Shown here piece by piece: positions 1,233-62,506 of a stretch of 64,000 nucleotides of DNA; position 1 is the stretch's first letter, and every line of letters starts with the position of its first letter. The stretch comes from an uncultured Candidatus Saccharibacteria bacterium. GTDB taxonomy: Bacteria; Patescibacteriota; Andersenbacteria; UBA10190. Location of the stretch: contig CAZLVG010000001.1 of NCBI GenBank assembly GCA_964562905.1, positions 2,297 to 66,296 on the forward strand, given 5' to 3'. The translations under genes and the position numbers were made by a program. A model generated the notes under the pieces. It was not told the DNA's origin and did not search any database. It saw only the letters and a program-made list of their open reading frames with translations.

Positions 1233-2654
1233 TTACACGTCATCCTCTCCCTGCGGCAGCGGCTTGGTGCCCAACAAACGTCCCAACAACTCATTGACAT
1301 CGCCCCGGCTATAACACCTGAACCTTATTTCGTAATGGTTCTTCTCCGGGCTGAAACTGACACGGGCATTATATCCGTAGCGGTCTTCCAACTCTCCACT
1401 GTATTTGGACTCAAAAGGAGTACGGCCGCCCCGGCTGCGGCGGGCGGAGTCGTCCACCTCCATAGCTCTCTGAATACGCCTGGCTCGCGTCTCCGCCTTG
1501 CGCACAGTCAGTCCTTCAGCTACCAGATGGGAATAAAAGCGTTTTTGTTTCTCTTCGTCGGGAATCATAAGTATGGCCCGGGCGTGACCGGCCGAAATCA
1601 CGCCGTCAGTCAGTCCCTGGCGAATAACTTTCGGCAACTGCAATACGCGTAGCATATTAGTAATGCTGACCCGGCTGCGCCCGATACGCTCTCCTATTTC
1701 ATGATGCGTCATGCCGTACTCATCGCACAACCGTTTATACGCCATTGCCTCCTCCACGGGATTCAAGTTTTCCCGCTGAATATTCTCTATCAGGGCCATT
1801 TCCAGCCGCGTGGAGTCCTCCCCCACCCCCCGGCGCACCACGCAGGGTACGCGCTCCCAGCCCAACTGCTGGGCAGCTTTTAACCTTCTCTCACCGGCCA
1901 CCAGCTGATATTTATCACCATGCCTCCTGACCACCAGCGGCTGCAAAATGCCGTGCTGGGCGATAGAATCCATCAGCTCCTGCATCTCCGCTTTATCAAA
2001 GTGCCGCCGCGGCTGGGTAGGATTGGTTTCTATGTCCCTAATTATCACGCTCCGCACCTTCTCCTCGTGCTTATCCCAGGCAGCGCCCTTCCTATCCTCC
2101 GAGCTGACCACGTTATCAAGCAGCTCTTCATCCGGCTGCCGCGCGCTGCCGGCCGGGGTGCCTTCACCCTCTTTTTCCCGCTCTTCCCCTCCTCCGGAAG
2201 TTTCCTCTTCCTCGCCGCCATCCACGGTCAAAGGGGTTACTAACGGTTGTTTGGGCCGTAATGTTTTCTCTTCTTCCGCTCCCGCTTCCGTTCCGCTGTC
2301 CTCCTTCTCTTCCTCCTTCGTCCGCGTCTGCACGTCCTGCATCTTACGTTTCGCCGGACTGGACTTTCCCGACCGGACGGAAGTCCCGTCTCTTGCCTCG
2401 CTCTCCGCTTGCCCTGACGCCGGGGACGAATCCTCGCCCACCACGCTTACCCTCTGTCCTGCGCCTTTCTTATTAGCAGCAGCTTCCCCCTCTCCACCGT
2501 TCTCCTCTCCACCAGTGTGTCCGCTGCCGGCCGCGTCATTTGTCCGTAGCTCCTTTTCCTCTTCCTCAAGGCGATCCACTACGTCATCGGCGCTGTCCAC
2601 GCCCAGCCTGGGAATAAGAGACTTAAGTCCTCCTTTGAACATTCTTTTTCTCAT
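1233..2654 (-). CDS. parB: ParB/Spo0J partition protein with long acidic low-complexity N-terminal extension
   Basis: ParB box LQPLVVRRHGDKYQLVAGERRLKAAQQLG and an HTH region. About 200 aa of Gly/Glu/Ala-rich sequence precede the ParB domain. It overlaps parA by 4 nt. Confidence 0.85.
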   Translation of the reverse strand: MRKRMFKGGLKSLIPRLGVDSADDVVDRLEEEEKELRTNDAAGSGHTGGEENGGEGEAAANKKGAGQRVSVVGEDSSPASGQAESEARDGTSVRSGKSSPAKRKMQDVQTRTKEEEKEDSGTEAGAEEEKTLRPKQPLVTPLTVDGGEEEETSGGGEEREKEGEGTPAGSARQPDEELLDNVVSSEDRKGAAWDKHEEKVRSVIIRDIETNPTQPRRHFDKAEMQELMDSIAQHGILQPLVVRRHGDKYQLVAGERRLKAAQQLGWERVPCVVRRGVGEDSTRLEMALIENIQRENLNPVEEAMAYKRLCDEYGMTHHEIGERIGRSRVSITNMLRVLQLPKVIRQGLTDGVISAGHARAILMIPDEEKQKRFYSHLVAEGLTVRKAETRARRIQRAMEVDDSARRSRGGRTPFESKYSGELEDRYGYNARVSFSPEKNHYEIRFRCYSRGDVNELLGRLLGTKPLPQGEDDV

Positions 2655-3415
2655 GAATATAAATTTAATAATTCTTCTGAAAGATACTGATAAGCTTTAG
2701 CCCCGCGGGACCTGCCCGCGTAGTTAATTATACACTGCCCCGCGCTGGGCGCCTCCGCCAGCTCCGTATTGCGCGGAATAACGCTTTCAAACACGTGGCC
2801 GGGAAAGGTCTTGCGCACTTGGCGCACCACTTTTCTGGCCATAGACACTCTCCTGTCATACATAGTCAGTAGCGCCCCTAAAACCTGCAGCCGGGGGTTT
2901 AGGTGCGACCGCACCAGCTCCACCGTCTGCAAGAGCTGCTCCAGGCCTTCCAGCGCCAGATATTCGCACTGCACGGGTATGAGCAAACGATCGGCCGCCA
3001 CCAAGCCATTAATGGTCAGCAAACCCAGGCTGGGAGGACAATCCACCAGGATAAATTCAAAATGATCCTTCAACGGCTTAAGAGCCCGGCGCAGCCGATA
3101 TTCCCGGTAAGGCCGCTGCATCAGCTCTATAGCCGCGCCGGCTAAGTTAGGAGTGGAAGCTATCAGATTAAGATTCTGAACAGCGGTGGGCTGCAGGGCC
3201 CGCAAAGCACTCTCCTGGCCCGTCAGCACCTCGTACAAAGTGACAGACTCGGCCGACAGCCGCACCCCTACCCCGGTAGTAGCGTTAGCCTGCGGATCCA
3301 GGTCAATGACCACGGTGGGATAGCCGGCTGCCGCTAAGTAGCCACCCAAATTAACGCTGGTGGTCGTTTTGCCCACGCCCCCCTTCTGATTAGTGATGGC
3401 TACCACTTCCGCCAT
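2651..3415 (-). CDS. parA: ParA/Soj family ATPase
   Basis: Deviant Walker A motif VAITNQKGGVGKTTTSVNLG, typical ParA length (254 aa), and operon arrangement with parB. Confidence 0.9.
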   Translation of the reverse strand: MAEVVAITNQKGGVGKTTTSVNLGGYLAAAGYPTVVIDLDPQANATTGVGVRLSAESVTLYEVLTGQESALRALQPTAVQNLNLIASTPNLAGAAIELMQRPYREYRLRRALKPLKDHFEFILVDCPPSLGLLTINGLVAADRLLIPVQCEYLALEGLEQLLQTVELVRSHLNPRLQVLGALLTMYDRRVSMARKVVRQVRKTFPGHVFESVIPRNTELAEAPSAGQCIINYAGRSRGAKAYQYLSEELLNLYS

Positions 3416-3573
3416 GGCTACGAAGAGAAGGAATTTGCCGCTATATTAATCAGCATACTGCTATTATTGTAATATAACTGCCGGCTTTTACACAACAACC
3501 CTTTCAGTAAGCGCTTTTCCACAAGAAGGACAGCTACAAAGCTTGGCAACTATTCCTATCTCCTTGCGATCAG

Positions 3574-3610
3574 TAATTCGTAACTCGTAACTCGTAATTC
3601 GTAATTCGTA
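3574..3610. repeat. Tandem heptamer array (TCGTAAT/TCGTAAC) x ~5.5
   Basis: Direct reading shows gtaattcgtaactcgtaactcgtaattcgtaattcgtaa. Its reverse complement matches motifs at 39961 and 60723. Confidence 0.8.
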
Positions 3611-3632
3611 AAAAAAACTTCCTTGATTTTCC

Positions 3633-3858
3633 CCTCCCTTGATCATTACTATCTACACATCTTATGACTATGTTGAGCCACTACAGCCATATTGAGGTAA
3701 ATCGGTTAATCCAGATGTTTTAAGAACGCTTAATTAAGGCAAGATTACATACGCCTTGTTTAAGCGAATAACGTTTCTCTGCTCTATAATTGGCCTAACA
3801 GTAGCTTTGTTATGCCTCCTAATAGACTTGTGTAGATAGTAATGCCCTTGATGGGGGA
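3633..3858. repeat. AT-rich spacer bounded by a 16-bp inverted repeat (candidate replication origin or regulatory region)
   Basis: cattactatctacaca (3644-3659) pairs with tgtgtagatagtaatg (3829-3844). Each arm is flanked by a direct cccttgat. The intervening ~165 bp are markedly AT-rich relative to the window. Confidence 0.4.
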
Positions 3859-3944
3859 ATTTAAGGGGAGAAAATTAGGGAGCAGTTATCCGGTATTTCC
3901 TTGCTAGTTAGCTCTTTTAATGTAAGCTATCATACTTGCATGCG

Positions 3945-4031
3945 GCCGCGGTGACGGAATTGGCAGACGTGATGGCCTCAAAAGCCATTGGGAGCAATCC
4001 CGTGAGAGTTCGAGTCTCTCCCGCGGCACCA
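3945..4031 (+). tRNA. tRNA-Leu(CAA), class II with long variable arm, CCA encoded
   Basis: Acceptor stem GCCGCGG/CCGCGGC. Anticodon stem-loop ATGGC-CTCAAAA-GCCAT gives anticodon CAA. There is a long variable arm and a T-arm GAGAG-TTCGAGT-CTCTC. The 3' end is ACCA. Confidence 0.9.
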
Positions 4032-4106
4032 GTTGGATAAGTTCACCCCGACAAGGCGGCCGGGTGCCGCCGGGCGGGGGCGAAAGTCTTCCGCCGGACG
4101 TCATAC

Positions 4107-5258
4107 CTATAAGAACACATACATCAGCACCAGGGCCGCGGCTAAAAGCCAGGCTATGGTAAAACCGGTGAAAGGCAGCACCGTGGCAAAAACGGCCACC
4201 AGGACCAGTGCCACCACGCCTTTGGAAACAGCCAGCGCCATCTCCAGCGCCACCACGTACTGCAAAGCCCCGACTTGCCTCCCCTGCTTATACAGCCGGT
4301 ACCACATGGGGATCCTAATGCCTATGAAGGCCGTTTTTGACAGGGTGTCCGTCAGTAAAACTCTAAGCGGGGTGGAAGATACAGGACGAAACAGATAGCC
4401 CAGTATCATGAAAGGCATGTGCATCCTTATAATATTCTTCCTGGAAAAGCGGTCACTTATCTCACCGACAAAGAAGCCCACCAACATCATTACCAACACG
4501 TTCAGGGAAGCCACCAGGCCCAACCGCGCCGCGCCGCCTAGAATAATGAACATGAAAATGGGCCAGAGTACCATATCAATCAGATTTTCTCCCCACCCTA
4601 TCATGGTCAGCACCATCTTACGGTGCCGGGGGGAAGCGATAATACGCCAAGGAGTGCCGTAGTTAAACTTCAGGCGGCGGTAATCCTCTTTGGTACGCAG
4701 CAGCGGGAACACGGCTAATAAGGCCAGGCAGGCGGCGGCCACAAACAACACCGGAAAACCGAAATGAGCGGCGATCAGACCGCCGGCCAGCGGGCCCAGC
4801 ACTCCCGCGCCCCTGCTTAGCGCGTACAACCAGGACAGTTCCGTCCCTTGGTTGTTCGCTTCGCTAAACAGGCAGACTTCGGTGTGGTAGGCCGGCCAGT
4901 AAAACAGCTTGAACAAAGTCAGTAATATCCAGGCGACCCAAAACAATCCCGGCAGCCACGGCAGCGAGGCCAGCGTCAGAAAATAAATAACAAAAAGGGG
5001 CATGGCAAGGGAAAGCGAGCGTTCCGATCCGAACCGGCCCACGAATTTCCCTCCCAGCGGCATGAGGACCGCGTACAGGGCGTAGTGAAGGGCGTAATAA
5101 AAAGCTATCTTGGACAGGGTAATACCCTCTTGGTAAAAAAAGACTGGCTCAAAGATCAGTATCAGCGCGCTGGCAAACGAAAAAAGAACAGTAAACGCGT
5201 ACAGCTCTTTCATTTCCCGTCTGGGCCTGACAGCGAACAGCCGGTAAAAAATGTTCAT
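4107..5258 (-). CDS. MFS-type transporter (polytopic membrane protein)
   Basis: About 12 hydrophobic segments. The MFS-like loop motif GGKFVGRFGSER lies between TM2 and TM3. Confidence 0.6.
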   Translation of the reverse strand: MNIFYRLFAVRPRREMKELYAFTVLFSFASALILIFEPVFFYQEGITLSKIAFYYALHYALYAVLMPLGGKFVGRFGSERSLSLAMPLFVIYFLTLASLPWLPGLFWVAWILLTLFKLFYWPAYHTEVCLFSEANNQGTELSWLYALSRGAGVLGPLAGGLIAAHFGFPVLFVAAACLALLAVFPLLRTKEDYRRLKFNYGTPWRIIASPRHRKMVLTMIGWGENLIDMVLWPIFMFIILGGAARLGLVASLNVLVMMLVGFFVGEISDRFSRKNIIRMHMPFMILGYLFRPVSSTPLRVLLTDTLSKTAFIGIRIPMWYRLYKQGRQVGALQYVVALEMALAVSKGVVALVLVAVFATVLPFTGFTIAWLLAAALVLMYVFL

Positions 5259-6619: not shown

Positions 6620-6658
6620 ATCCAGTCGTTAATCTTTAGGAGCCGGCCAGGCAGTTGC

Positions 6659-6787
6659 ATAGCTATCACATTACGCCATGCCGCTCTATACGCGTGACGG
6701 GTCCTTATCGCGGCCCTGCGCCCCCACGCCGCGGTGCAGTGGCTCCGGGGCGCGGGGGACCCCGCGCGCCGCGCCACCCGTTTATTT
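6659..6787. mobile_element. MITE-like repeat, copy 2 (single TIR, inverted relative to copy 1)
   Basis: It begins atagctatcacattacgccatgccgctct and ends gcgccacccgtttattt, which is the reverse complement of aaataaacgggtggcgc in copies 1 and 3. The core is GC-rich and palindromic. It lies in the convergent spacer between ugd and the nucleotidyltransferase. Confidence 0.55.
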
Positions 6788-6844
6788 ATTGTTATCCGCC
6801 TTCGCCGGCTGGCGAACGGCAAAGTCAAAGATTTAACCGCTAAA

Positions 6845-38458: not shown

Positions 38459-38859
38459 GGGCGCGTTATGGCCTCGACGGGTTGTTGTTTACCCAATCTG
38501 CGTGCTGTGTGCTGTGAGCCGCTCACATAAATAAAAGGGTTCACCAAAGTTCAAGTGCGAACTTATTTAAGCGGGTGAAGACGGCTTTGGCCCCTTCATT
38601 TGCTACCGCTGCCGCTTAAACACCGGCAGCCATCGCCTCGCTCCTGCCGCCGGGCGCGAGCAGCGGTGCCAGATCAGGCGGATAGGGCGGTTTGGTTTGA
38701 GAGACAAGCTGCCTGACTTAAAGCACATTCTCCTCACGTGCGCCTGAAGTCTTTGCCGGTCTGTTGCTGCCCGCGTACGTAAAACTGCCAGACCGGCTAC
38801 GCGCGTAGATGATTGCGTATCCACATCCCGCACGCGAGTTCAACTCTCGCCGCGTCCAC
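38459..38859 (+). ncRNA. ssrA: tmRNA (ssrA)
   Basis: The 5' end GGGCGCGTTATGGCCTCGACGGG matches the tmRNA 5' consensus. The 3' tRNA-like end has T-arm GCGAG-TTCAACT-CTCGC. Acceptor 3' strand CGCGTCC pairs with 5' GGGCGCG, including the G3:U70 alanine identity pair. Discriminator A is followed by CC. An internal reading frame ends ...FATAAA-TAA, resembling a proteolysis tag. Confidence 0.85.
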
Positions 38860-39416
38860 CGACCTTCGCTCTCCATCTTTGGCGGAGGGTGCCGTCCACA
38901 GCCTCCGAGCTTTAGCAAGGAGCGACGGACGGCTGCAATAATTGCATGCGGCAATATGTTTATGTATTGCGGAATAACAGAAAAGATCAGCAAACAGATA
39001 GCCTGAATAAAAGGCTGCAGCAACATAACCAAGGTGCGTTCCAGCAACAACAGATAGTAGGCCTTGGTACGTCCATTGGTTCTGCGGATTCAGAACAAAG
39101 AAGGAAGCGCTAATCTTCGAAAAATATCTTAGGGGCGGTTCAGGCGCCATGTTCAGGTATAGGCATTTAGCGCCAAAACAGTAACCCCTAGGCTTCGCTT
39201 TCCGTAAGCCAGCGGCTAGTTTTGACAAATCCAGCCCTAAGCCGAATGAAGCTTAAGATGAACGATAACATAACGGAGATACTGGCATTTCCTGGAAAAG
39301 GAGAGTTTTTTCGCTTTGCCTCCCGGTCGGCTTTCCACAGCCTCCCGGCCGGCAGCGCGCGAGATTTTTCAAGCCCGCGACTATAATACCCAGGACATTT
39401 AAGTTACGGTTACTGT

Positions 39417-39917
39417 GTGTTTAAGTTCTGCCCGCGCTGCCGGAGAAAAATACGGAAAAGGCGCGACCGCTACGAATGTGCGAGCTGCGGGTTTTGTCTT
39501 TTTGTTAACCCGCCGGCCGCTGTGGCCGCCATAATTTACGACAACCAAAGACAAGTTCTGCTAACGCGAAGGGCCCGCTCCCCGCGCCGGGGATATTGGG
39601 AACTGCCGGGCGGTTTTGTTAACACCGGCGAATCGGCGGAGGAGGCGCTGCGGCGCGAAGTGCGCGAAGAGCTGGGAATATATTTGAAGTCCAGCCGTTA
39701 TCTGTGCTCCCGCCCTAATGTGTACCGCTACCGGAAAATGACTTACCGCCCGTTGGACCTGTTCTTCACCGCGCCGCTGCCGCCGGCAGCTAACATTGCC
39801 CCAGACCAAAGTGAGGTGTCCCGCTGGCGCTTGTTCCCCCCGCCGGAGGTGCCCTGGTCCAACATAGCCTTTAAATCCTACCGGCCCGTGCTGCGCCGCT
39901 GGTTCCAGCCGTCTTAA
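39417..39917 (+). CDS. NUDIX hydrolase with N-terminal zinc ribbon
   Basis: CPRC...CASCG zinc ribbon, then NUDIX box GGFVNTGESAEEALRREVREELGI. Confidence 0.85.
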   Translation: MFKFCPRCRRKIRKRRDRYECASCGFCLFVNPPAAVAAIIYDNQRQVLLTRRARSPRRGYWELPGGFVNTGESAEEALRREVREELGIYLKSSRYLCSRPNVYRYRKMTYRPLDLFFTAPLPPAANIAPDQSEVSRWRLFPPPEVPWSNIAFKSYRPVLRRWFQPS

Positions 39918-39960
39918 GGGACGCAACCGCGCCTGCACTTCCGCCCCGCCAATACAAATC

Positions 39961-39990
39961 ACGAGTTGCGAATTACGGATTACGAACCAC
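39961..39990. repeat. Dispersed ACGAGTT(A/G)CGAATTACG motif copy (upstream of infC)
   Basis: acgagttgcgaattacggattacgaacc matches the heptad arrays at 3574 and 60723. Confidence 0.6.
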
Positions 39991-39994
39991 AAAT

Positions 39995-40576
39995 TTGCTA
40001 AAAAAGCCAACTTCGGCTATAGTAGCCAACATGCCCAGCAGGCGCAGACGCTTCCGGTCGCGACCCAAACCGCAACCCCAAAAACCTCCCGTTAATCAGG
40101 AGATAAAAGCTCCTGAAGTGAGGCTGGTCGGCCGGGATGGACAGCAACATGGCGTGGTACCTTTAAAAGAAGCGCGCGTTCAGGCGGCCCAACAGGGCAC
40201 GGACCTGGTCATGGTGGCTGAAAAGGCCGATCCCCCGGTAGTGCGTCTTATGGATATAGGCAAGCACATGTACGAAAAAAGAAAGAAACAAGCTAAACAA
40301 AAAACAAAAAGCAAGGGGGGAGATATCAAGGGAATACGTATAGGTTTTCAAATGGGACAGCACGACTGGGAGAACCGTACCAAGCAAGCAGCTAGATTCC
40401 TTGAACAAGGCAATAAAGTCCGCCTGGAGATCCGGCTGCGCGGGAGAGAACGAGGACGGCTTGCCTTAGCTGAGAAAACCATGCAAGAATTCATAGCCGC
40501 CATACCGGCCGGCGCTAAAATTGAGGATACCATCAGCAAATCACCGCGGGGGCTGAATGTCCTTCTGGTCAGATAA
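39995..40576 (+). CDS. infC: Translation initiation factor IF-3
   Basis: Motifs EVRLVGRDGQQHGVVPLKEA...VMVAEKADPPVVRLMD and C-terminal domain IKGIRIGFQMGQHDWENRTKQAARFLEQGNKVRLEIRLRGRE. It has a basic N-terminal extension. The true start may be a non-ATG codon. Confidence 0.85.
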   Translation: MLKKPTSAIVANMPSRRRRFRSRPKPQPQKPPVNQEIKAPEVRLVGRDGQQHGVVPLKEARVQAAQQGTDLVMVAEKADPPVVRLMDIGKHMYEKRKKQAKQKTKSKGGDIKGIRIGFQMGQHDWENRTKQAARFLEQGNKVRLEIRLRGRERGRLALAEKTMQEFIAAIPAGAKIEDTISKSPRGLNVLLVR

Positions 40577-52086: not shown

Positions 52087-53547
52087 TTACCGCCACGTGG
52101 AAAACCAGAACAGTTTTTCGTACAAATCATGCGGTAAAAAGAAGCCGTACGTTAAGGGACTGAACACTAAAAACATAGCCGCCGCCGCTCCCAGCAGTAC
52201 ATAATAATAGGGGGGCTGCTTCATCAAGCTCCCTTTTCTGAAAAACCCGGTTCCGTCCAACCAGAGCAGACCCGCCAGTAAAGCGAACAAAAGAGGCGTA
52301 AGGTAATGATAAAGAAACAGCGCCCGCGGTACGCGCGCCAAAGGTACATAAGAGATAATATAACCGGCCAGCGGAATGAAAACGGCTTTATTATAGCCGT
52401 CAGAACCTAACCTTTTCAGAGATTCCAATTTATAAGCCGCGAAAAAATCTCTTATTTGTTTACTCCGCCTGTACAGGAATGAATAACACATGCCAAGCAG
52501 TGAAATAATCAACAGAGCGCCTATGCTCCACCAGACAACCAGATTACCCAGAAAATAAATGGAGGCTACGCGGCCTTCACCGCCGCTTTGCGTCCAGTAA
52601 AAAACGGGGGTGCCGACATACGGCCAACTCCACCAGCGACTGGCATCCGGATGGGTAGCTTCAAGGTTGTAGTTAGCGTCAAACATGATCCGATGTAATT
52701 CTATCGTTTCTTTGACAAAAGTTACGGGCAGCCAACCTTCGTCCCACTGCGGTACCCGCCAGGCATCTCCCGGTCCGGACTGTGTGAGCAAAGCAAAATG
52801 CAGCGCCCAGCCTGCCCCGTAGACAGTCAGGCCGCTGGCCGCGATTAGCAGAGCAACTGCCAGATAACGAGCTAACATCTTGTAAGATGAGACATTAAGC
52901 ACGCGCCAGGCCAGTATTACCGCCAGCACACCCGCGGCCACCAAGCCGGTAAACTTCGCGCCTACGGCCAGTCCGGCCAAGGCTCCTGCCGCGCACGCGC
53001 GCCACGCCCATCTCTGCCAGTGAAAAGGACTTTTCCTGAATGATTTTTCCATCCCCAAGTAGGCGCTTAGACAACCAAAAACAGCTACCAGCAGCACGCC
53101 GTCCAGGGATATTACGCGATTTTGCACGGTCAGAGCGTTATCAAATATAACCATCATGCTCCCTAAAAAAGCTGCCGCCTGTCCGGCTCCCAACTGTCTT
53201 AACAATATAAAAATCACGAGCGGCAGCAACATTCCCATAAGCGCCGGTACGGCCCGCAGTCCGATAGGAGACACAGCACCGTACCTCTGCCCTATATTGG
53301 AAAACGACAAGTCTCCCTCATAACCAGCCAGTTTAGCGGCGCCCGCCACCAGCAGCTTGGCGTGGGGCGGATGGATATCAAAAAATCTCTCTCCCGTACA
53401 GCAGTAGGCCGTAACGAACTTTCCAAAATGAACCTCGTCAAAAACCACTTGCCGCGGATAGCTTAGCCACATAAATTGAGTGGCCGCGGCCAGCGCGAGG
53501 ATAACCAACAATAATTTGAACCGCTGCGACATAAGTACAGATATCAC
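52087..53547 (-). CDS. Protein O-mannosyltransferase family (GT39/PMT) GT-C glycosyltransferase
   Basis: Strong PMT signature VFDEVHFGKFVTAYCCTGERFFDIHPPHAKLL (loop-1 DE motif). About 11 TM helices. Confidence 0.8.
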   Translation of the reverse strand: MISVLMSQRFKLLLVILALAAATQFMWLSYPRQVVFDEVHFGKFVTAYCCTGERFFDIHPPHAKLLVAGAAKLAGYEGDLSFSNIGQRYGAVSPIGLRAVPALMGMLLPLVIFILLRQLGAGQAAAFLGSMMVIFDNALTVQNRVISLDGVLLVAVFGCLSAYLGMEKSFRKSPFHWQRWAWRACAAGALAGLAVGAKFTGLVAAGVLAVILAWRVLNVSSYKMLARYLAVALLIAASGLTVYGAGWALHFALLTQSGPGDAWRVPQWDEGWLPVTFVKETIELHRIMFDANYNLEATHPDASRWWSWPYVGTPVFYWTQSGGEGRVASIYFLGNLVVWWSIGALLIISLLGMCYSFLYRRSKQIRDFFAAYKLESLKRLGSDGYNKAVFIPLAGYIISYVPLARVPRALFLYHYLTPLLFALLAGLLWLDGTGFFRKGSLMKQPPYYYVLLGAAAAMFLVFSPLTYGFFLPHDLYEKLFWFSTWR

Positions 53548-53655
53548 ATTATGCCATGCCGCTCTTCAAAATAAACGGGTGGCGCGGGGTGGAGGGTGCA
53601 GGGCCGTGCCAGGGCCCGTTATAAGTATAGCGGCATGGCATAATGTTACCTCTGT
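53539..53655. mobile_element. MITE-like repeat, copy 3 (complete, both TIRs)
   Basis: The perfect TIR tcacattatgccatgccgct ... agcggcatggcataatgt is embedded in longer imperfect terminal similarity (agatatcacattatgcc... / ...ggcataatgttacctctgt). The element is near-identical to the reverse complement of the 60541-60656 copy. Confidence 0.75.
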
Positions 53656-53821
53656 AGATGTTTATTTTATGCGACAGTATTATTTTCCTCCACTGTCGTC
53701 AACGGCCATGTCTGTGCTCTGCGCTAATTAATCTAACTACGTCAAGCGCTAGCCGCTGGCTGTCCGGGCTAGACCGTCGGTACCGGCTGGCAACCGCCGC
53801 CGTAACGACCGCCGGCTGAAA

Positions 53822-57798: not shown

Positions 57799-59309
57799 TG
57801 CTGCAAGGTCATTTCAATCCTGGCTCGGGTGCTTCCTTCCGACACCGTGACTGTCTGCTGGCCTTCTTCAAACCCGGGCGCGCTCACCGTCAGCTCGTAA
57901 TCTCCCCCCGACGGCAAATCGCTGAACAGCACCTGTCCCACCGCGCCCGTGCCCAGTTCCTCGTCAATGCCCTGGCCTACCAGCCGGACGGTGGCGTTGT
58001 CCACCGGCTGCCCCTCGGGATCAACCACCGTCACGTGCAGCGAATAAGGGGTGTAGGGCACCAACGTTACCGTCATGTCCAGGTTGTCACCAGGATTGAC
58101 GTTCAAAGGCAGCACGAAGCTGGTCTCTTTTATATCGTAACCCGTCGCCGCCCCTGGGATGGTAAAGTCATACTGATCCCACACTAAGTCATCATAACCG
58201 GCCTGTCCCGCGTCGTCCGTGCTGCCGTCATGGTCCAGTACGTACACGTTATCTCCCTCGCCGTCCACCCCTATGGTTTTAGTGCCCCGCAAATTGTAGT
58301 CCAGGCTGACCGGCGTTCCGTCTTCTTCCCGCGTTGTTATAGAAAGGCCGGCCAGGCTATCTATGGCAAAGGTTTTACTGGTTACCTCGCCAATTATGAT
58401 GGACAGGTGGGCGTGGTCCGCGTCGGGCACGAAATCGACCGTGGTATCGTAAGTCTGCTCGGACGTGTAGCCGGGCGTGCTTACCGCCAGCTCATAACTG
58501 TCAGAACTTTCCGGCAGTCCCGGCAGCACCAGCCTGCCCTCGCTGTTGGTCTGGGTGTTTATATCAATGGGCGGGTCCACCGTCTCGTTCACTAGCCGCA
58601 CATCGGCTCCTTCTACCCCCTCGGCGGCGGCGTTCAAAGCCTGGAAATCCAAGGTGCCGCCCTCTTCTCCTCCCTCCATGCCCGGCGGCGCCACGTAGGT
58701 TACCAGCAAGACCGATCCTGTCTTGTTAGGCTGCTGCCAGGTAACTTCCACCCGGACCTGTTTGTAATCGGCGTTATACTCGTCTCCGGGCGGCGTGCCT
58801 TCACCGCCCTCACCGCACGCTCCCGTCACGTCACCGTGCGCCAGGTGAGCGTCCAGCGCCGAATCGGGCACCTGCAGCGTTCTCTCCGATGACGTGCCCG
58901 GCTTGTGGCAAATAGTTACCGTCTCTTCTCCCTCGCTGCTGCCGGCCGCTTGTCCGTCAAAGTAGTCGTCCACGTACCTGATGTCGGTATACACCGTGTA
59001 AGTTACGCCGCCGCGCTCCACCTGCTCTTCTTGTGGTATGCTGCCGCTGGGCACCCCGCCTTCCGTTCCCACCTCCGCGTAGGGAAGATTGCGCACCATC
59101 TCCATTCTCTCATTAGCCAGCGCCACCGCCATTATCCGTCGCTCTCCTTCCTGTACCGTGCGCAGATTAAGCACGAACAGTCCAAATATGCCCGTCAGGG
59201 TGGTACCAATAATAAAAGCGGCGATGAGCAATTCAATCAGCGTGAATCCCCTATCATTTGGCAGCTTGATAAAATAGCTTATTAACTTTGATAGCGGTTT
59301 AAATGACAT
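57795..59309 (-). CDS. Large pilin-like protein with CarboxypepD_reg-like domains
   Basis: Prepilin signal DRGFTLIELLIAAFIIGTTL. The 450-aa C-terminal region contains CarboxypepD_reg-like repeats (ATVRLVGQGIDEELGTGAVGQVLFSDLPSGGDYELTVSAPGFE). Confidence 0.75.
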   Translation of the reverse strand: MSFKPLSKLISYFIKLPNDRGFTLIELLIAAFIIGTTLTGIFGLFVLNLRTVQEGERRIMAVALANERMEMVRNLPYAEVGTEGGVPSGSIPQEEQVERGGVTYTVYTDIRYVDDYFDGQAAGSSEGEETVTICHKPGTSSERTLQVPDSALDAHLAHGDVTGACGEGGEGTPPGDEYNADYKQVRVEVTWQQPNKTGSVLLVTYVAPPGMEGGEEGGTLDFQALNAAAEGVEGADVRLVNETVDPPIDINTQTNSEGRLVLPGLPESSDSYELAVSTPGYTSEQTYDTTVDFVPDADHAHLSIIIGEVTSKTFAIDSLAGLSITTREEDGTPVSLDYNLRGTKTIGVDGEGDNVYVLDHDGSTDDAGQAGYDDLVWDQYDFTIPGAATGYDIKETSFVLPLNVNPGDNLDMTVTLVPYTPYSLHVTVVDPEGQPVDNATVRLVGQGIDEELGTGAVGQVLFSDLPSGGDYELTVSAPGFEEGQQTVTVSEGSTRARIEMTLQQ

Positions 59310-60516
59310 TGACCAGGTTGTAGATGGGTGAAATAACGGATACCGCCAGCGCTCCCACCGCCAGACCTATGAGCACCATCAGAATGGGCTCCATAATGGA
59401 AGTCAGGTTCTTCATGGTCTGGTCAACTTCACCTTCATAAAACTGCGCCGTCTCTTTCAATACTTGGTCCAACGCGCCCGTCTCTTCTCCTACCCTTATT
59501 ATATTAACGACAATCGGAGGAAACAGACGGCCGAAACCTTCCAGAAATTCACTTAATTCCTTGCCTCCCTTTACGTGCTCGCGCGCCTGCGCCAGCACGC
59601 GCGCGTAGCTAGGGTGGGGAGTGTTGGATCCCAGAATATCCAGAGCCTTAATGTAAGACACGCCGCTGGACAGCAGCGCGCCCAAGTTACGAGAAAAACG
59701 GGCTAAGTTTATCTCTTGCATGATAGGGCCAATCACCGGCGTATAGAGCAGCCCGTGCATGACAGCGGCCTTAACAGACTGCAGACGCAAAAGACCCCAG
59801 GCCGCGGCCACCAGAACAAACGCGCCTACGAAGAAAAGCAGCCAGTGAGCTTGAAAAGCGTCGCTGATGGCTATCAATATCCTGGTGGGCAGCGGCAGCT
59901 CCACGTCAAAACCTTCAAAGACCTCCACCAGCTTGGGCACCACGAAGAACATCATGGCCACCCCTACGGCAATAAGGGACAAAATAATCACTATGGGATA
60001 CATAAGGCCTCCCTTGACCGCCCGGCCCAGCTCATATTCTTTATGCAGCTGCTCCGCCAATACTTCTAAAGATTCTTGCAGCCGGCCGGTCGTCTCCCCT
60101 ACTCGCACAAAACTGACAAACAGCGGCGGAAACACATTAGGGAAAACCGACATCCCCTCGGCCAGCGTTTTGCCGCGGTCTATGTCACTGTGTAATGACT
60201 TCAAAGCCGTTCTCATGGCCCTACTACGGGTTTGCTCCTGTAAGGTCACCAGCGATCTTTTGACATCCAAGCCAGAACGCAACATGAGCGCGAAGTAGCG
60301 GGCGAACAGCGCGCGCTCCAGGGAGGATGCCCGGTTAAATAAGCCGGAAAAAACAGCCGCTCCCGGCAGCCGCTGTGCCTTTCTGCTGTAACTTGTCAGC
60401 AGTATACCCTCGCCTAACAGGTTCTGTCCCAAAACGGAGTGGTCGGGCGCCTCGCGCATCCCCCGCACTATCTCACCCGTCTTCTCCCGCCGTCCTTCAA
60501 AGGAATATATAGGCAT
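59299..60516 (-). CDS. pilC: Type IV pilus inner-membrane platform protein PilC (GspF family)
   Basis: Two GspF repeats, each with 3 TM. Motifs LEQ.G...AL..M.YP..I. Confidence 0.9.
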   Translation of the reverse strand: MPIYSFEGRREKTGEIVRGMREAPDHSVLGQNLLGEGILLTSYSRKAQRLPGAAVFSGLFNRASSLERALFARYFALMLRSGLDVKRSLVTLQEQTRSRAMRTALKSLHSDIDRGKTLAEGMSVFPNVFPPLFVSFVRVGETTGRLQESLEVLAEQLHKEYELGRAVKGGLMYPIVIILSLIAVGVAMMFFVVPKLVEVFEGFDVELPLPTRILIAISDAFQAHWLLFFVGAFVLVAAAWGLLRLQSVKAAVMHGLLYTPVIGPIMQEINLARFSRNLGALLSSGVSYIKALDILGSNTPHPSYARVLAQAREHVKGGKELSEFLEGFGRLFPPIVVNIIRVGEETGALDQVLKETAQFYEGEVDQTMKNLTSIMEPILMVLIGLAVGALAVSVISPIYNLVNVI

Positions 60517-60540
60517 CCCGGCAACAATTAATGCTAATAT

Positions 60541-60656
60541 ACAGAGGTAACATTATGCCATGCCACTATACTTGTGACGGGCTCTGGCGCGGCCCATGCA
60601 CCCCCGCGCCGCGCCACCCGTTTATTTAAAGAGTGGCATGGCATAATGTGATATCT
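60541..60656. mobile_element. MITE-like repeat, copy 4 (complete, both TIRs; inverted relative to copy 3)
   Basis: acagaggtaacattatgccatgcc...ggcatggcataatgtgatatct. It is about 90% identical to the reverse complement of copy 3, including the GC-rich core and the aaataaacgggtggcgc box. Confidence 0.75.
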
Positions 60657-60722
60657 ATAACTCACAGGTTTAAGTATAAATAATTATCCCTCCACCGACC
60701 AACCTCACCTCGCCCACACTAG

Positions 60723-60752
60723 CTACGAATTACGAGTTACGAATTACTGATT
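60723..60752. repeat. Dispersed heptad motif copy ACGAATTACGAGTTACGAATTACTG
   Basis: Near-identical to the reverse complement of 3574-3610, including the flanking attactgat. It lies immediately downstream of the pilB stop. Confidence 0.7.
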
Positions 60753-60760
60753 ACAAAACC

Positions 60761-62506
60761 TCATTCCCTGGCTACGCGCAACACTTCTTCTAAGCTGGTT
60801 ACTCCGCTGGCCACTTTCATAAAACCGTCCTCCACCATGCTTACCATGTTCTGTCCTTTGCGCGCCGCCTCTTCCAGCTGTCCAGAAGTAGTCTGCGGCT
60901 TTATTATCTGCTGCATTTCGGACGTTATTTCCATAACCTCGTAAATACCGATTCGCCCCTTGTAGCCGTCGTGACACCGCTGGCAGCCGCCCGCTTCGCC
61001 CGTCTTATAAAGCGGCATCTCCGTCCAGTCGGCATTGCTTTCAACTACTCCTTCCTTTCGTAAAACATTCAATACGCTGTCCATGTCAAACTCGTCCTGC
61101 AAATCTTTAACCAAAGCCGGCGTGAACTTCGACCGCCGCCGGCACTTGTCGCACAACCGTCTCACCAGGCGCTGGGCCAGAACTAGGTTTAAGGTGGAAG
61201 CCAGCAGAAAAGCTTCCACTTTCATGTCCCGCAACCGCGGCAAAGCGCCGGCCGCGCTGTTAGTGTGCAGCGTAGACAGCACTAGGTGCCCCGTCAGCGC
61301 CGCGTTAACGGCCAGCGAAGCCGTCTCCTCGTCCCGGATCTCACCTACCATAATAATGTCCGGGTCCTGCCGTACCAGCGACCGCAGGCCGTTGGCAAAC
61401 GTAAGCCCGATGCGGGAACGCACCTGGGTCTGATTAATGCGGGGCATACGGTATTCTATCGGGTCTTCAATAGTGCTGATGTTCACTTCCGAAGTGTTTA
61501 CCTCCTTCATAACCGCGTACAGCGTGGTGGTTTTGCCGGAACCGGTAGGACCTGTGACCAGTATCATACCGTGCGGGTGGTGAATGGCCTGGCGCAGTAC
61601 CTTTAACTGTTTTTTGTTTATTCCCAGGTCATCCAATCCCAGCCCCTGCCCTGATTCGTCCAACAGGCGCATTACTATTTTTTCACCGTCATAGACCGGC
61701 AGGGTGGACACGCGGAAGGCCACTTTGTAATTGTCGGACTCTATTTTAAAACGGCCGTCCTGCGGCAAACGGTGTTCATCAATTTTCAAATTAGCCAGCA
61801 CCTTCACCCTGGCCACCAGGCCGGGCAACACCGTCTTAGGCAGTATCAGCATATCCCGCAGAATCCCGTCTATACGGTAGCGAACGATAACTTTCTTCTC
61901 GGCGGGCTCTATGTGAATATCCGAGGCGCCTTCCAGAATGGCGTGCTTCAAAATTGCCTGGGCGATACGTATAACCGGCAGGTCGTCAGCCGATTCAACT
62001 TGCTCCCCCTGCTCCACTACATTTTTAAGTTCTTCGCCGACTACGTCTGAAAGCTCCGCCTTCAAGCTCTCTTGGTATTGGTTCAGCACGTTCTGTATGG
62101 AGGCAACGCTGGCCTGAGCCACCTCCACGGGCATGTCCACCTTTTTGCGCAAGAACTCCACCATTTGCCGATCGCTGGGGCTGGCCATGGCCACCCGCAG
62201 CCCTTTATCCGTCTGCTCGTAAGCTATGATCATGTGGCCGCGCGCCGTGGATTCAGGAAGAACGTTAAGCACTTCCCGCGGAACTCTCTTATCTCTCAAA
62301 TCAACGTAAGGCACCTGCGCCGCCTCCGCCTGAACTTTGGCCAAGTCTTCGCCGTCCACCAGGCCGCTGTCCACTAAAGCAGCCTGCCAGCCGGCACCGG
62401 CCTCCAGCTGCCGCTTTATCTCCTCCAGCTCTACCTCTTTCTTGAACAAATCTCTGCTAGCCAGCGTTTGCAGGATATTACCAATGGCGACAGTATCCTC
62501 TACCAT
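60761..62506 (-). CDS. pilB: Type IV pilus assembly ATPase PilB (GspE family)
   Basis: Walker A motif LVTGPTGSGKTTTLYA, Asp/His boxes, and tetracysteine CDKC...CQRC. An N-terminal GSPII_E_N domain is present. Confidence 0.95.
   Translation of the reverse strand: MVEDTVAIGNILQTLASRDLFKKEVELEEIKRQLEAGAGWQAALVDSGLVDGEDLAKVQAEAAQVPYVDLRDKRVPREVLNVLPESTARGHMIIAYEQTDKGLRVAMASPSDRQMVEFLRKKVDMPVEVAQASVASIQNVLNQYQESLKAELSDVVGEELKNVVEQGEQVESADDLPVIRIAQAILKHAILEGASDIHIEPAEKKVIVRYRIDGILRDMLILPKTVLPGLVARVKVLANLKIDEHRLPQDGRFKIESDNYKVAFRVSTLPVYDGEKIVMRLLDESGQGLGLDDLGINKKQLKVLRQAIHHPHGMILVTGPTGSGKTTTLYAVMKEVNTSEVNISTIEDPIEYRMPRINQTQVRSRIGLTFANGLRSLVRQDPDIIMVGEIRDEETASLAVNAALTGHLVLSTLHTNSAAGALPRLRDMKVEAFLLASTLNLVLAQRLVRRLCDKCRRRSKFTPALVKDLQDEFDMDSVLNVLRKEGVVESNADWTEMPLYKTGEAGGCQRCHDGYKGRIGIYEVMEITSEMQQIIKPQTTSGQLEEAARKGQNMVSMVEDGFMKVASGVTSLEEVLRVARE

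Follow-up and report, generated by a model that had tools for sequence, protein, structure and literature searches.

The DNA analysed here, a stretch of 64,000 nucleotides that we call the window, carries three arrays of a tandemly repeated heptamer, ACGARTT (ACGAATT or ACGAGTT), which can be read directly in the sequence and which in all three instances lie between annotated genes. The best named matches of the PilB, IF3 and ParA encoded in the window are to Candidatus Andersenbacteria of the CPR (Patescibacteria), and the closest retrievable relatives share its gene order at 72-84% protein identity. The features at the three sites, which we number in the order of the window, are as follows:

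1233-2654, minus strand: ParB (NCBIfam).
2651-3415, minus strand: ParA (NCBIfam).
3500-3944: lineage-specific extra DNA of about 400 bp, from the 5' end of the tRNA-Leu gene to the conserved promoter-proximal segment of parA.
3568-3611, minus strand: array 1, TTTTTTTT-ACGAATT-ACGAATT-ACGAGTT-ACGAGTT-ACGAATT-ACTGATC.
3945-4031, plus strand: tRNA-Leu(CAA), divergent from parA (Rfam and ARAGORN).
4107-5258, minus strand: MFS transporter (NCBIfam).
38459-38861: tmRNA, placed by Rfam and ARAGORN, away from the arrays.
39417-39917, plus strand: Nudix hydrolase (NCBIfam).
39954-39995, plus strand: array 2, ACAAATC-ACGAGTT-GCGAATT-ACGGATT-ACGAACC-ACAAATT.
39995-40023, plus strand: infC promoter, TTGCTA-17 nt-TATAGT, conserved in four relatives.
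39995/40031-40576, plus strand: IF3, the infC gene (NCBIfam).
59299-60516, minus strand: PilC (NCBIfam).
60517-60760: pilB-pilC spacer of 244 bp, containing array 3 and a hairpin element at 60537-60662.
60718-60759, plus strand: array 3, ACTAGCT-ACGAATT-ACGAGTT-ACGAATT-ACTGATT-ACAAAAC.
60761-62506, minus strand: PilB (NCBIfam).

Array 1 comprises five full units at 3575-3609 (ACGAATT twice, ACGAGTT twice and ACGAATT) followed by the degenerate unit ACTGATC at 3568-3574, and is reported by Tandem Repeats Finder with a period of 7, 5.6 copies and 93% matches. Array 3 is reported by the same program with a period of 7 and 3.4 copies, and the units of array 2 are degenerate or decayed, yet stand in a 7-nt register. 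Searching the window with the pattern ACGARTTACGARTTACG at up to three mismatches gave 11 overlapping matches, every one of them within the three arrays, as against 0.37 expected from shuffles of the window, with none of 100 shuffles reaching 11. The arrays are thus statistically non-random and constitute a real dispersed family beyond chance simple repeats, so that direct reading and counting alike bear out an earlier, sequence-only reading of this DNA, which had reported a dispersed heptad-repeat motif at three loci. ACGAATT and ACGAGTT occur seven times each in the 64 kb, both strands taken together, and mostly inside the three arrays. A period scan of the window allowing no more than two mismatches, a threshold that the degenerate array 2 escapes, found four period-7 stretches, namely arrays 1 and 3 and two short unrelated ones at 38498 and 40294, along with 12 and 11 stretches of periods 5 and 6, respectively. 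Since the period-7 count does not exceed those for periods 5 and 6, there is no general excess of heptamers in the window and the ACGARTT family alone stands out. The single strands of the arrays are predicted to be unstructured and fold no better than shuffles, with z-scores of +1.2 to -0.4.

Arrays 1 and 3 have an exact 20-mer, ACGAGTTACGAATTACTGAT, in common, and match over 28 nt at 96% identity. As this stretch includes the variant unit ACTGAT and has the variants in the same order, it suggests that the two arrays descend from a common copy. The sequence-only reading had described an identical flank at these two places and had regarded its conservation as the sign of a defined element. The string concerned, cgaattactgat, is indeed found at both arrays, but ACTGAT(T/C) keeps the heptamer register, so we read this "flank" as a degenerate, twice-mutated repeat unit rather than as unique sequence. 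In a scan of metagenomes with the 20-mer, four contigs were obtained, the match lying inside a heptamer array in each; these contigs range in GC from 0.35 to 0.53 and show no protein homology to the window. Recurring as it does in the heptamer arrays of apparently unrelated contigs, the flank was rejected as the marker of an element with defined ends. Sequence comparison found no mutual similarity among the three regions outside the arrays, and the defined ends, inverted repeats and common flanks of a MITE- or REP-type element were not found; the hairpin elements near the arrays are separate and distinct from them. To judge from these comparisons, no larger element with defined ends lies behind the arrays.

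At the first site, the arrangement of parA with a divergent tRNA-Leu gene is kept in the relatives. Between these two genes, array 1 is about 155 nt from the parA start and about 335 nt from the tRNA gene, upstream of both; the earlier label "parA upstream" passes over the tRNA-Leu gene that also flanks the spacer. An ORF at 3904-4104 beside the array was discarded as spurious, as the tRNA-Leu gene overlaps it. The spacer measures 529 nt in the window versus 118-134 nt in three relatives (L311, L312 and L313), in whose spacers no array was found. The approximately 100 promoter-proximal nucleotides nearest parA are recognisably conserved between the window and the relatives. The extra DNA at 3500-3944 contains, in addition to array 1, a 253-nt inverted-repeat element (3618-3870) that directly adjoins the array via an A8/T8 run at 3610-3617. 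This element has imperfect arms of 42 nt with perfect inner arms of 16 bp (3644-3659 and 3829-3844), and its RNA fold has a z-score of -3.7; it has no Rfam match and is absent from the tRNA-Leu/parA spacer of the three relatives. In a blastn comparison with annotated phages, the site-1 insertion likewise had no match.

At the second site, array 2 begins 37 nt past the stop codon of the Nudix hydrolase gene and extends to the -35 box of infC. The promoter, TTGCYA-17-TATAGT, is kept in four relatives (L124, L125, L126 and L131). The infC ATG at 40031 comes 7 nt after the TATAGT -10 box, and the IF3 proteins of the relatives, mostly of 181 aa, align over their full length from this ATG. The infC mRNA is thus probably leaderless, and array 2, which had been assigned to an infC leader, lies just upstream of the -35 box and not in a leader. 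The IF3 genes of many bacteria have an unusual AUU start codon that is used for autoregulation. Upstream of the -35 box in L124, L125 and L126 there is no array, and the sequence is unrelated and G+C-rich; the contig of the fourth relative ends just upstream of that box. Arrays 1 and 2 have the same orientation, and each has a TTGC(C/T)A hexamer 7-24 nt downstream of it, TTGCCA in the case of array 1. Between the tmRNA and infC, the window (38459-40030) has the Nudix hydrolase gene, where L124 (7252-10000) has a GIY-YIG gene and small ORFs. This segment is a variable island beside the tmRNA gene, and array 2 is situated at its edge.

At the third site, a single nucleotide separates array 3 from the pilB stop codon (minus strand, 60761-60763), and pilC follows after about 200 nt. 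The array is antisense to the pilB-pilC transcript and is not terminator-like, contrary to the suggestion that it belongs to a pilB terminator. The pilB-pilC spacer of 244 bp in the window compares with one of only 9 bp both in L121 and in the independent L314, and neither of these contains an array. A palindromic hairpin element of 126 nt (60537-60662), which folds at -37.2 kcal/mol with a z-score of -8.7, lies 55 nt from array 3. Four intergenic copies of this element occur in the window (60537-60662, 53536-53659, 1079-1163 and 6657-6790), two of them full length, 90% identical and in opposite orientation, and two partial or variant. It was not seen at the loci fetched from the relatives, and in appearance it resembles a REP or MITE.

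The homologous spacers of the relatives, wherever they could be read, have no array at any of the three sites, and the window exceeds the relatives by about 235 bp of intergenic DNA at site 3 and 400 bp at site 1. On the evidence of these neighbourhoods, parA, infC and pilBC do not have conserved regulatory sites in the three arrays. The sequence-only reading had allowed that the motif might be restricted to these three places and lack conservation; the relatives' spacers indeed have no array, but the motif proves to be widespread elsewhere. A related array of five units (AGTTACC, AGTTACC, AGTTACT, GGTTACT and GGTTACG) occurs at another place in L121 (GCA_043811915.1), which suggests that the Andersenbacteria-like lineage gains and loses such arrays. 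It is located at 821-860 in a glycoside-hydrolase-like gene, whose predicted N-terminal signal-like segment, MRKLPVTSYWLLVTVAALG, contains it. As a change in unit number there would shift the frame, this array is a candidate for, and could be, a phase-variable switch.

We then consider the occurrence of the same unit, also written as AATTACG, in other organisms. A scan of genomes, with one genome per species and 596 Gb in all, gave at least 120 loci, which were tallied from the titles of the matches listed. Among the 120 loci listed, about 45 are from Cyanobacteria (mostly Nostocales), 31 from Bacteroidota, nine from Planctomycetota, eight from Chloroflexota, seven from Acidobacteriota, four from Ignavibacteriota or Calditrichota, two from Verrucomicrobiota and two from CPR, with only a handful from Proteobacteria and Firmicutes. 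Altogether, ACGARTT arrays were found in at least 10 phyla as well as in viral contigs. The query was a 17-mer with two R positions, for which our own arithmetic gives about 1,000 chance matches in 596 Gb, so that the raw count of genome loci means little. Most of the matches, however, run on into longer arrays, many have other heptamer arrays as neighbours and several are paired in inverted orientation. At distances of more than 300 nt from the seed arrays, the same genome loci contain 124 period-7 arrays as against 11-15 for periods 5, 6 and 8, and, when all arrays at these loci are counted, 93 distinct units are represented. In the Nostocales, at six of the loci (L006, L071, L038, L060, L067 and L103), a sequence of 24-30 nt, for example ttagcgcagcgttagcgacgcaggagcgtc, splits an AATTACG array and has units on both its sides; these interrupters presumably resemble the small dispersed repeats of Nostoc, reportedly described by Elhai et al. 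in 2008. A MAG of the Caldilineales (L040) has a higher-order tandem repeat of 64 bp, each unit of which consists of a short ACGAGTT array and about 47 nt of other sequence.

Viral contigs gave at least 120 ACGARTT loci, compared with 36 and 23 for two permuted heptamers of matched composition, and with a 31-mer the real unit gave eight loci as against none for the control. All eight of the 31-mer loci are among the viral loci listed, so these probably cover most of the viral collection, and AATTACG is thus enriched in viral contigs roughly three- to fivefold over permuted controls. It is thus a favoured unit within a general but lineage-patchy tendency to form heptamer arrays, and no unique signal. 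Some compact viral contigs have six separate AATTACG arrays in 10 kb. Six to seven such arrays per 10-18 kb are present in IMGVR_UViG_3300020045_012626 (L191) and IMGVR_UViG_3300009868_000138 (L164/L183), one of which is a genome of 64% GC, and some of these arrays form inverted pairs around short spacers. On the array-rich viral contigs, a Shine-Dalgarno sequence and an ATG often follow about 23 nt after an array in sense orientation; this placement and the enrichment hint at a function in at least some hosts. A survey of orientation and distance for 224 arrays from other genomes and viruses, which relied on crude ORF calling, found no clear sense or antisense bias upstream of starts, although the viral loci differ next to stop codons. 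Comparison of the proteins encoded on array-rich viral contigs gave few weak or moderate matches between contigs, none of them prominent.

Cyanobacterial heptamer repeats have been on record since 1990, and those of Bacteroidetes, Beggiatoaceae and Xanthomonas since the 2000s and 2010s. The arrays of the window belong to this long-known class. Among its members, the classic STRR units are CCCCAGT, TTGGTCA and CAACAGT, all differing from ACGARTT. Both the STRRs and the window arrays are tandem, intergenic and dispersed, and consist of 7-nt units in a few to tens of copies. As to particulars, the window arrays are made of head-to-tail 7-nt units in at least three copies, one unit recurs at several dispersed intergenic places, and turnover is fast, with the presence of arrays differing at the homologous spacers of close relatives. 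AATTACG itself is abundant in the Nostocales, to which most of the approximately 45 cyanobacterial loci among the 120 listed belong. The window differs in its host, a CPR bacterium of small genome with 55% GC, and in having three short arrays in 64 kb with no general period-7 excess. The STRR heptanucleotides were described in heterocystous cyanobacteria, in Calothrix PCC 7601 (ref. 39 in PMC4692102, as referred to there). According to the summaries in PMC4679880 and PMC4692102, Mrazek et al. 2007 found that, in most of the genomes examined, units of seven nucleotides were commonest among the long SSRs, and invoked slippage of the polymerase; the LSSRs of their survey (5-11-nt units), as there summarised, and the loci fetched here have the same period-7 excess. 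That survey predates CPR genomes, and in these two summaries ACGARTT is not singled out.

Also close to the window arrays are the TAACTGA arrays of marine Beggiatoaceae, Cyanobacteria and Bacteroidetes, whose mechanism is not known (MacGregor 2015, PMC4679880). They show indels in 7-nt steps between Cyanothece strains, are missing from the shorter spacers of relatives, are mixed with other heptamers and lie upstream of starts (PMC4679880). Like the arrays of the window, they are intergenic direct repeats of a heptamer in 2-6 or more copies, with a patchy spread across phyla, an admixture of other heptamers and absence from the shorter spacers of close relatives; moreover, the variant unit TTACTGA of the window is one base from TAACTGA (MacGregor 2015, PMC4679880). 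In the BOGUAY genome, the TAACTGA repeats are mostly a few nucleotides upstream of start codons and in one orientation, whereas the window arrays have mixed distances and orientations. The GGGAATC and GGGGAYT arrays of Xanthomonas and Nostoc include inverted pairs and vary rapidly (Rehm et al. 2015, PMC4692102). They share with ACGARTT the character of intergenic heptameric SSRs, sometimes in inverted pairs, with much variation between relatives. In contrast to ACGARTT, which is A+T-rich and predicted to be structure-free, they are G-rich and form G-quadruplexes. A literature search for the exact string AATTACGAATTACG found no paper.

Taking these observations together, we think it probable that the arrays are STRR-like intergenic heptanucleotide SSRs that arise and are resized by slippage and have no conserved sequence-specific role here. 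Copies of ACGARTT would arise head-to-tail and change in length via slipped-strand mispairing, in spacer DNA that appears to be non-conserved and dispensable. The 7-nt register, the A/G variants of the unit and the decay of units at the edges of the arrays fit an origin of this type, in keeping with the slippage already suggested from unit number. Any effects on expression would be incidental: array 2 may provide A+T-rich sequence in the roughly 1-40 bp ahead of the infC -35 box, and array 3 would lengthen the intercistronic gap between pilB and pilC. The weak point of this explanation is that all three arrays use one unit family, so that copying, a preference for the unit or selection must act besides independent slippage; slippage alone leaves both the single unit family and the enrichment of AATTACG elsewhere unexplained.

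These same two facts are among those that would favour the arrays being recognition sites of a factor that binds DNA or RNA, for example a nucleoid protein, a regulator or, on transcripts, a protein of S1/Csp type, and that tunes how the genes nearby are transcribed or translated, in parallel to what has been proposed for the TAACTGA repeats of Beggiatoaceae and the recF/recO heptamers of Nostoc. Array 2 reaches directly to the -35 box of a promoter that is conserved, a TTGCCA hexamer follows array 1, and the viral arrays in sense orientation upstream of Shine-Dalgarno sequences, like the upstream-of-start placement in PMC4679880, would also agree with such a role. At the Nostoc recO promoter, moreover, deletion of the heptamers altered the effects of NtcA and LexA on a reporter (bioRxiv 10.1101/2022.06.06.494920). 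We nonetheless hold a role of this kind to be unlikely for the window arrays. Relatives that keep the promoters and the gene order lack an array at all three homologous places, and the orientation of the arrays to the flanking genes is inconsistent, that of array 3 being antisense. Elsewhere, the crude survey of 224 arrays found no orientation bias upstream of starts, no outstanding protein is common to the array-rich viral contigs, and AATTACG loci carry dozens of other heptamer units, which speaks against one dedicated binding protein.

A second alternative, which the sequence-only reading had also raised in naming a tiny mobile or recombinogenic repeat, is that the arrays were left or copied by insertion or recombination, being tiny mobile or templated repeats, or targets or scars of small mobile elements, and mark the junctions of recent insertions. 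All three do lie in lineage-specific or variable intergenic DNA: array 1 beside the 253-nt inverted-repeat element, array 2 at the edge of the tmRNA-infC segment and array 3 at 55 nt from the four-copy 126-nt hairpin. The match of arrays 1 and 3 over 28 nt at 96% and the sequences of 24-30 nt that interrupt AATTACG arrays at several loci in the Nostocales could be understood in the same way. However, the sites have nothing beyond the arrays in common, no remnants of arrays were found beyond the elements next to them, and there is no target-site duplication, no terminal structure and no transposase or integrase among the annotated flanking genes; the co-location may mean only that arrays survive solely in dispensable spacer DNA. 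We consider this alternative unlikely as well. We also entertained IS200/IS605-type targeting of the TTAC core, as IS608 inserts 3' of TTAC, and rejected it, given that the hairpin elements are not immediately 3' of TTAC and leave no array remnant on their far side. In a bolder version, AATTACG arrays would not come from passive slippage but would be minimal mobile or templated repeats: an active process with a sequence preference, common to many phyla and their viruses, would deposit or copy them where DNA is inserted or rearranged, and the window arrays would be its fresh footprints. We think this improbable.

Array 1 is near parAB, and the type IV pilus genes pilB and pilC could serve DNA uptake, but that the arrays are iterons, ParB (parS-like) sites, DNA-uptake signals or transcription terminators has almost no probability left. 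Iterons, DNA uptake sequences and parS are alike in being short repeated words that can cluster near parAB or gene ends, and they differ from the window arrays in unit length, symmetry, genomic density and context. Iterons are direct repeats of about 17-22 bp beside a rep gene or an origin that has DnaA boxes and an unwinding element rich in A+T; the unit here has 7 bp, its neighbours are parA, tRNA-Leu, Nudix, infC, pilB and pilC, no rep or dnaA is present among the annotated ORFs, and the cumulative GC skew runs monotonically through the window, without the turn of an origin, all of which speaks against the iteron role once suggested. The uptake-type signal proposed along with it fails on density: DNA uptake sequences (DUS/USS) occur about once per kb genome-wide, coding DNA included, as single copies or inverted pairs, as against the seven copies of each unit in 64 kb, mostly in arrays. 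The site of ParB, parS, is a 16-bp palindrome near parAB that is conserved among relatives. The arrays, proposed as targets of ParB, are not palindromic, are found at infC and pilB-pilC too, and are missing from the relatives' parA-upstream spacers; no match to the parS consensus (TGTTNCACGTGAAACA-like) at up to three mismatches was found in the window. Intrinsic terminators consist of a G+C-rich hairpin followed by a T run. Scans of sites 1 and 3 for terminators and promoters found nothing of the first kind there and nothing of the second on the arrays, whose strands are in any case unstructured. Structured RNA was rejected as well, and the sequence-only reading's own reservation that the motif might be a tRNA or rRNA fragment did not materialize. 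An Rfam scan at gathering thresholds found only the tmRNA and the tRNA-Leu, both away from the arrays, Rfam scans by E-value found nothing in the larger two of the spacers, those of sites 1 and 3, and the only tRNA from ARAGORN is the tRNA-Leu.

In annotation, the arrays should not be labelled as origins, parS, uptake signals, terminators or RNA genes, nor should conserved regulation of parA, infC or pilBC be read into them. They add an example of heptamer repeats from a reduced CPR genome, of an Andersenbacteria-like bacterium, which is an unusual host for such repeats. They also offer a clean comparison at three gene neighbourhoods, in which the spacers of relatives are without the array and two of the arrays lie in recently gained spacer DNA. 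The most worthwhile aspect is the recurrence of AATTACG across at least 10 phyla and in viral contigs, in the latter at three to five times the level of composition-matched controls, together with its link to newly gained spacer DNA.
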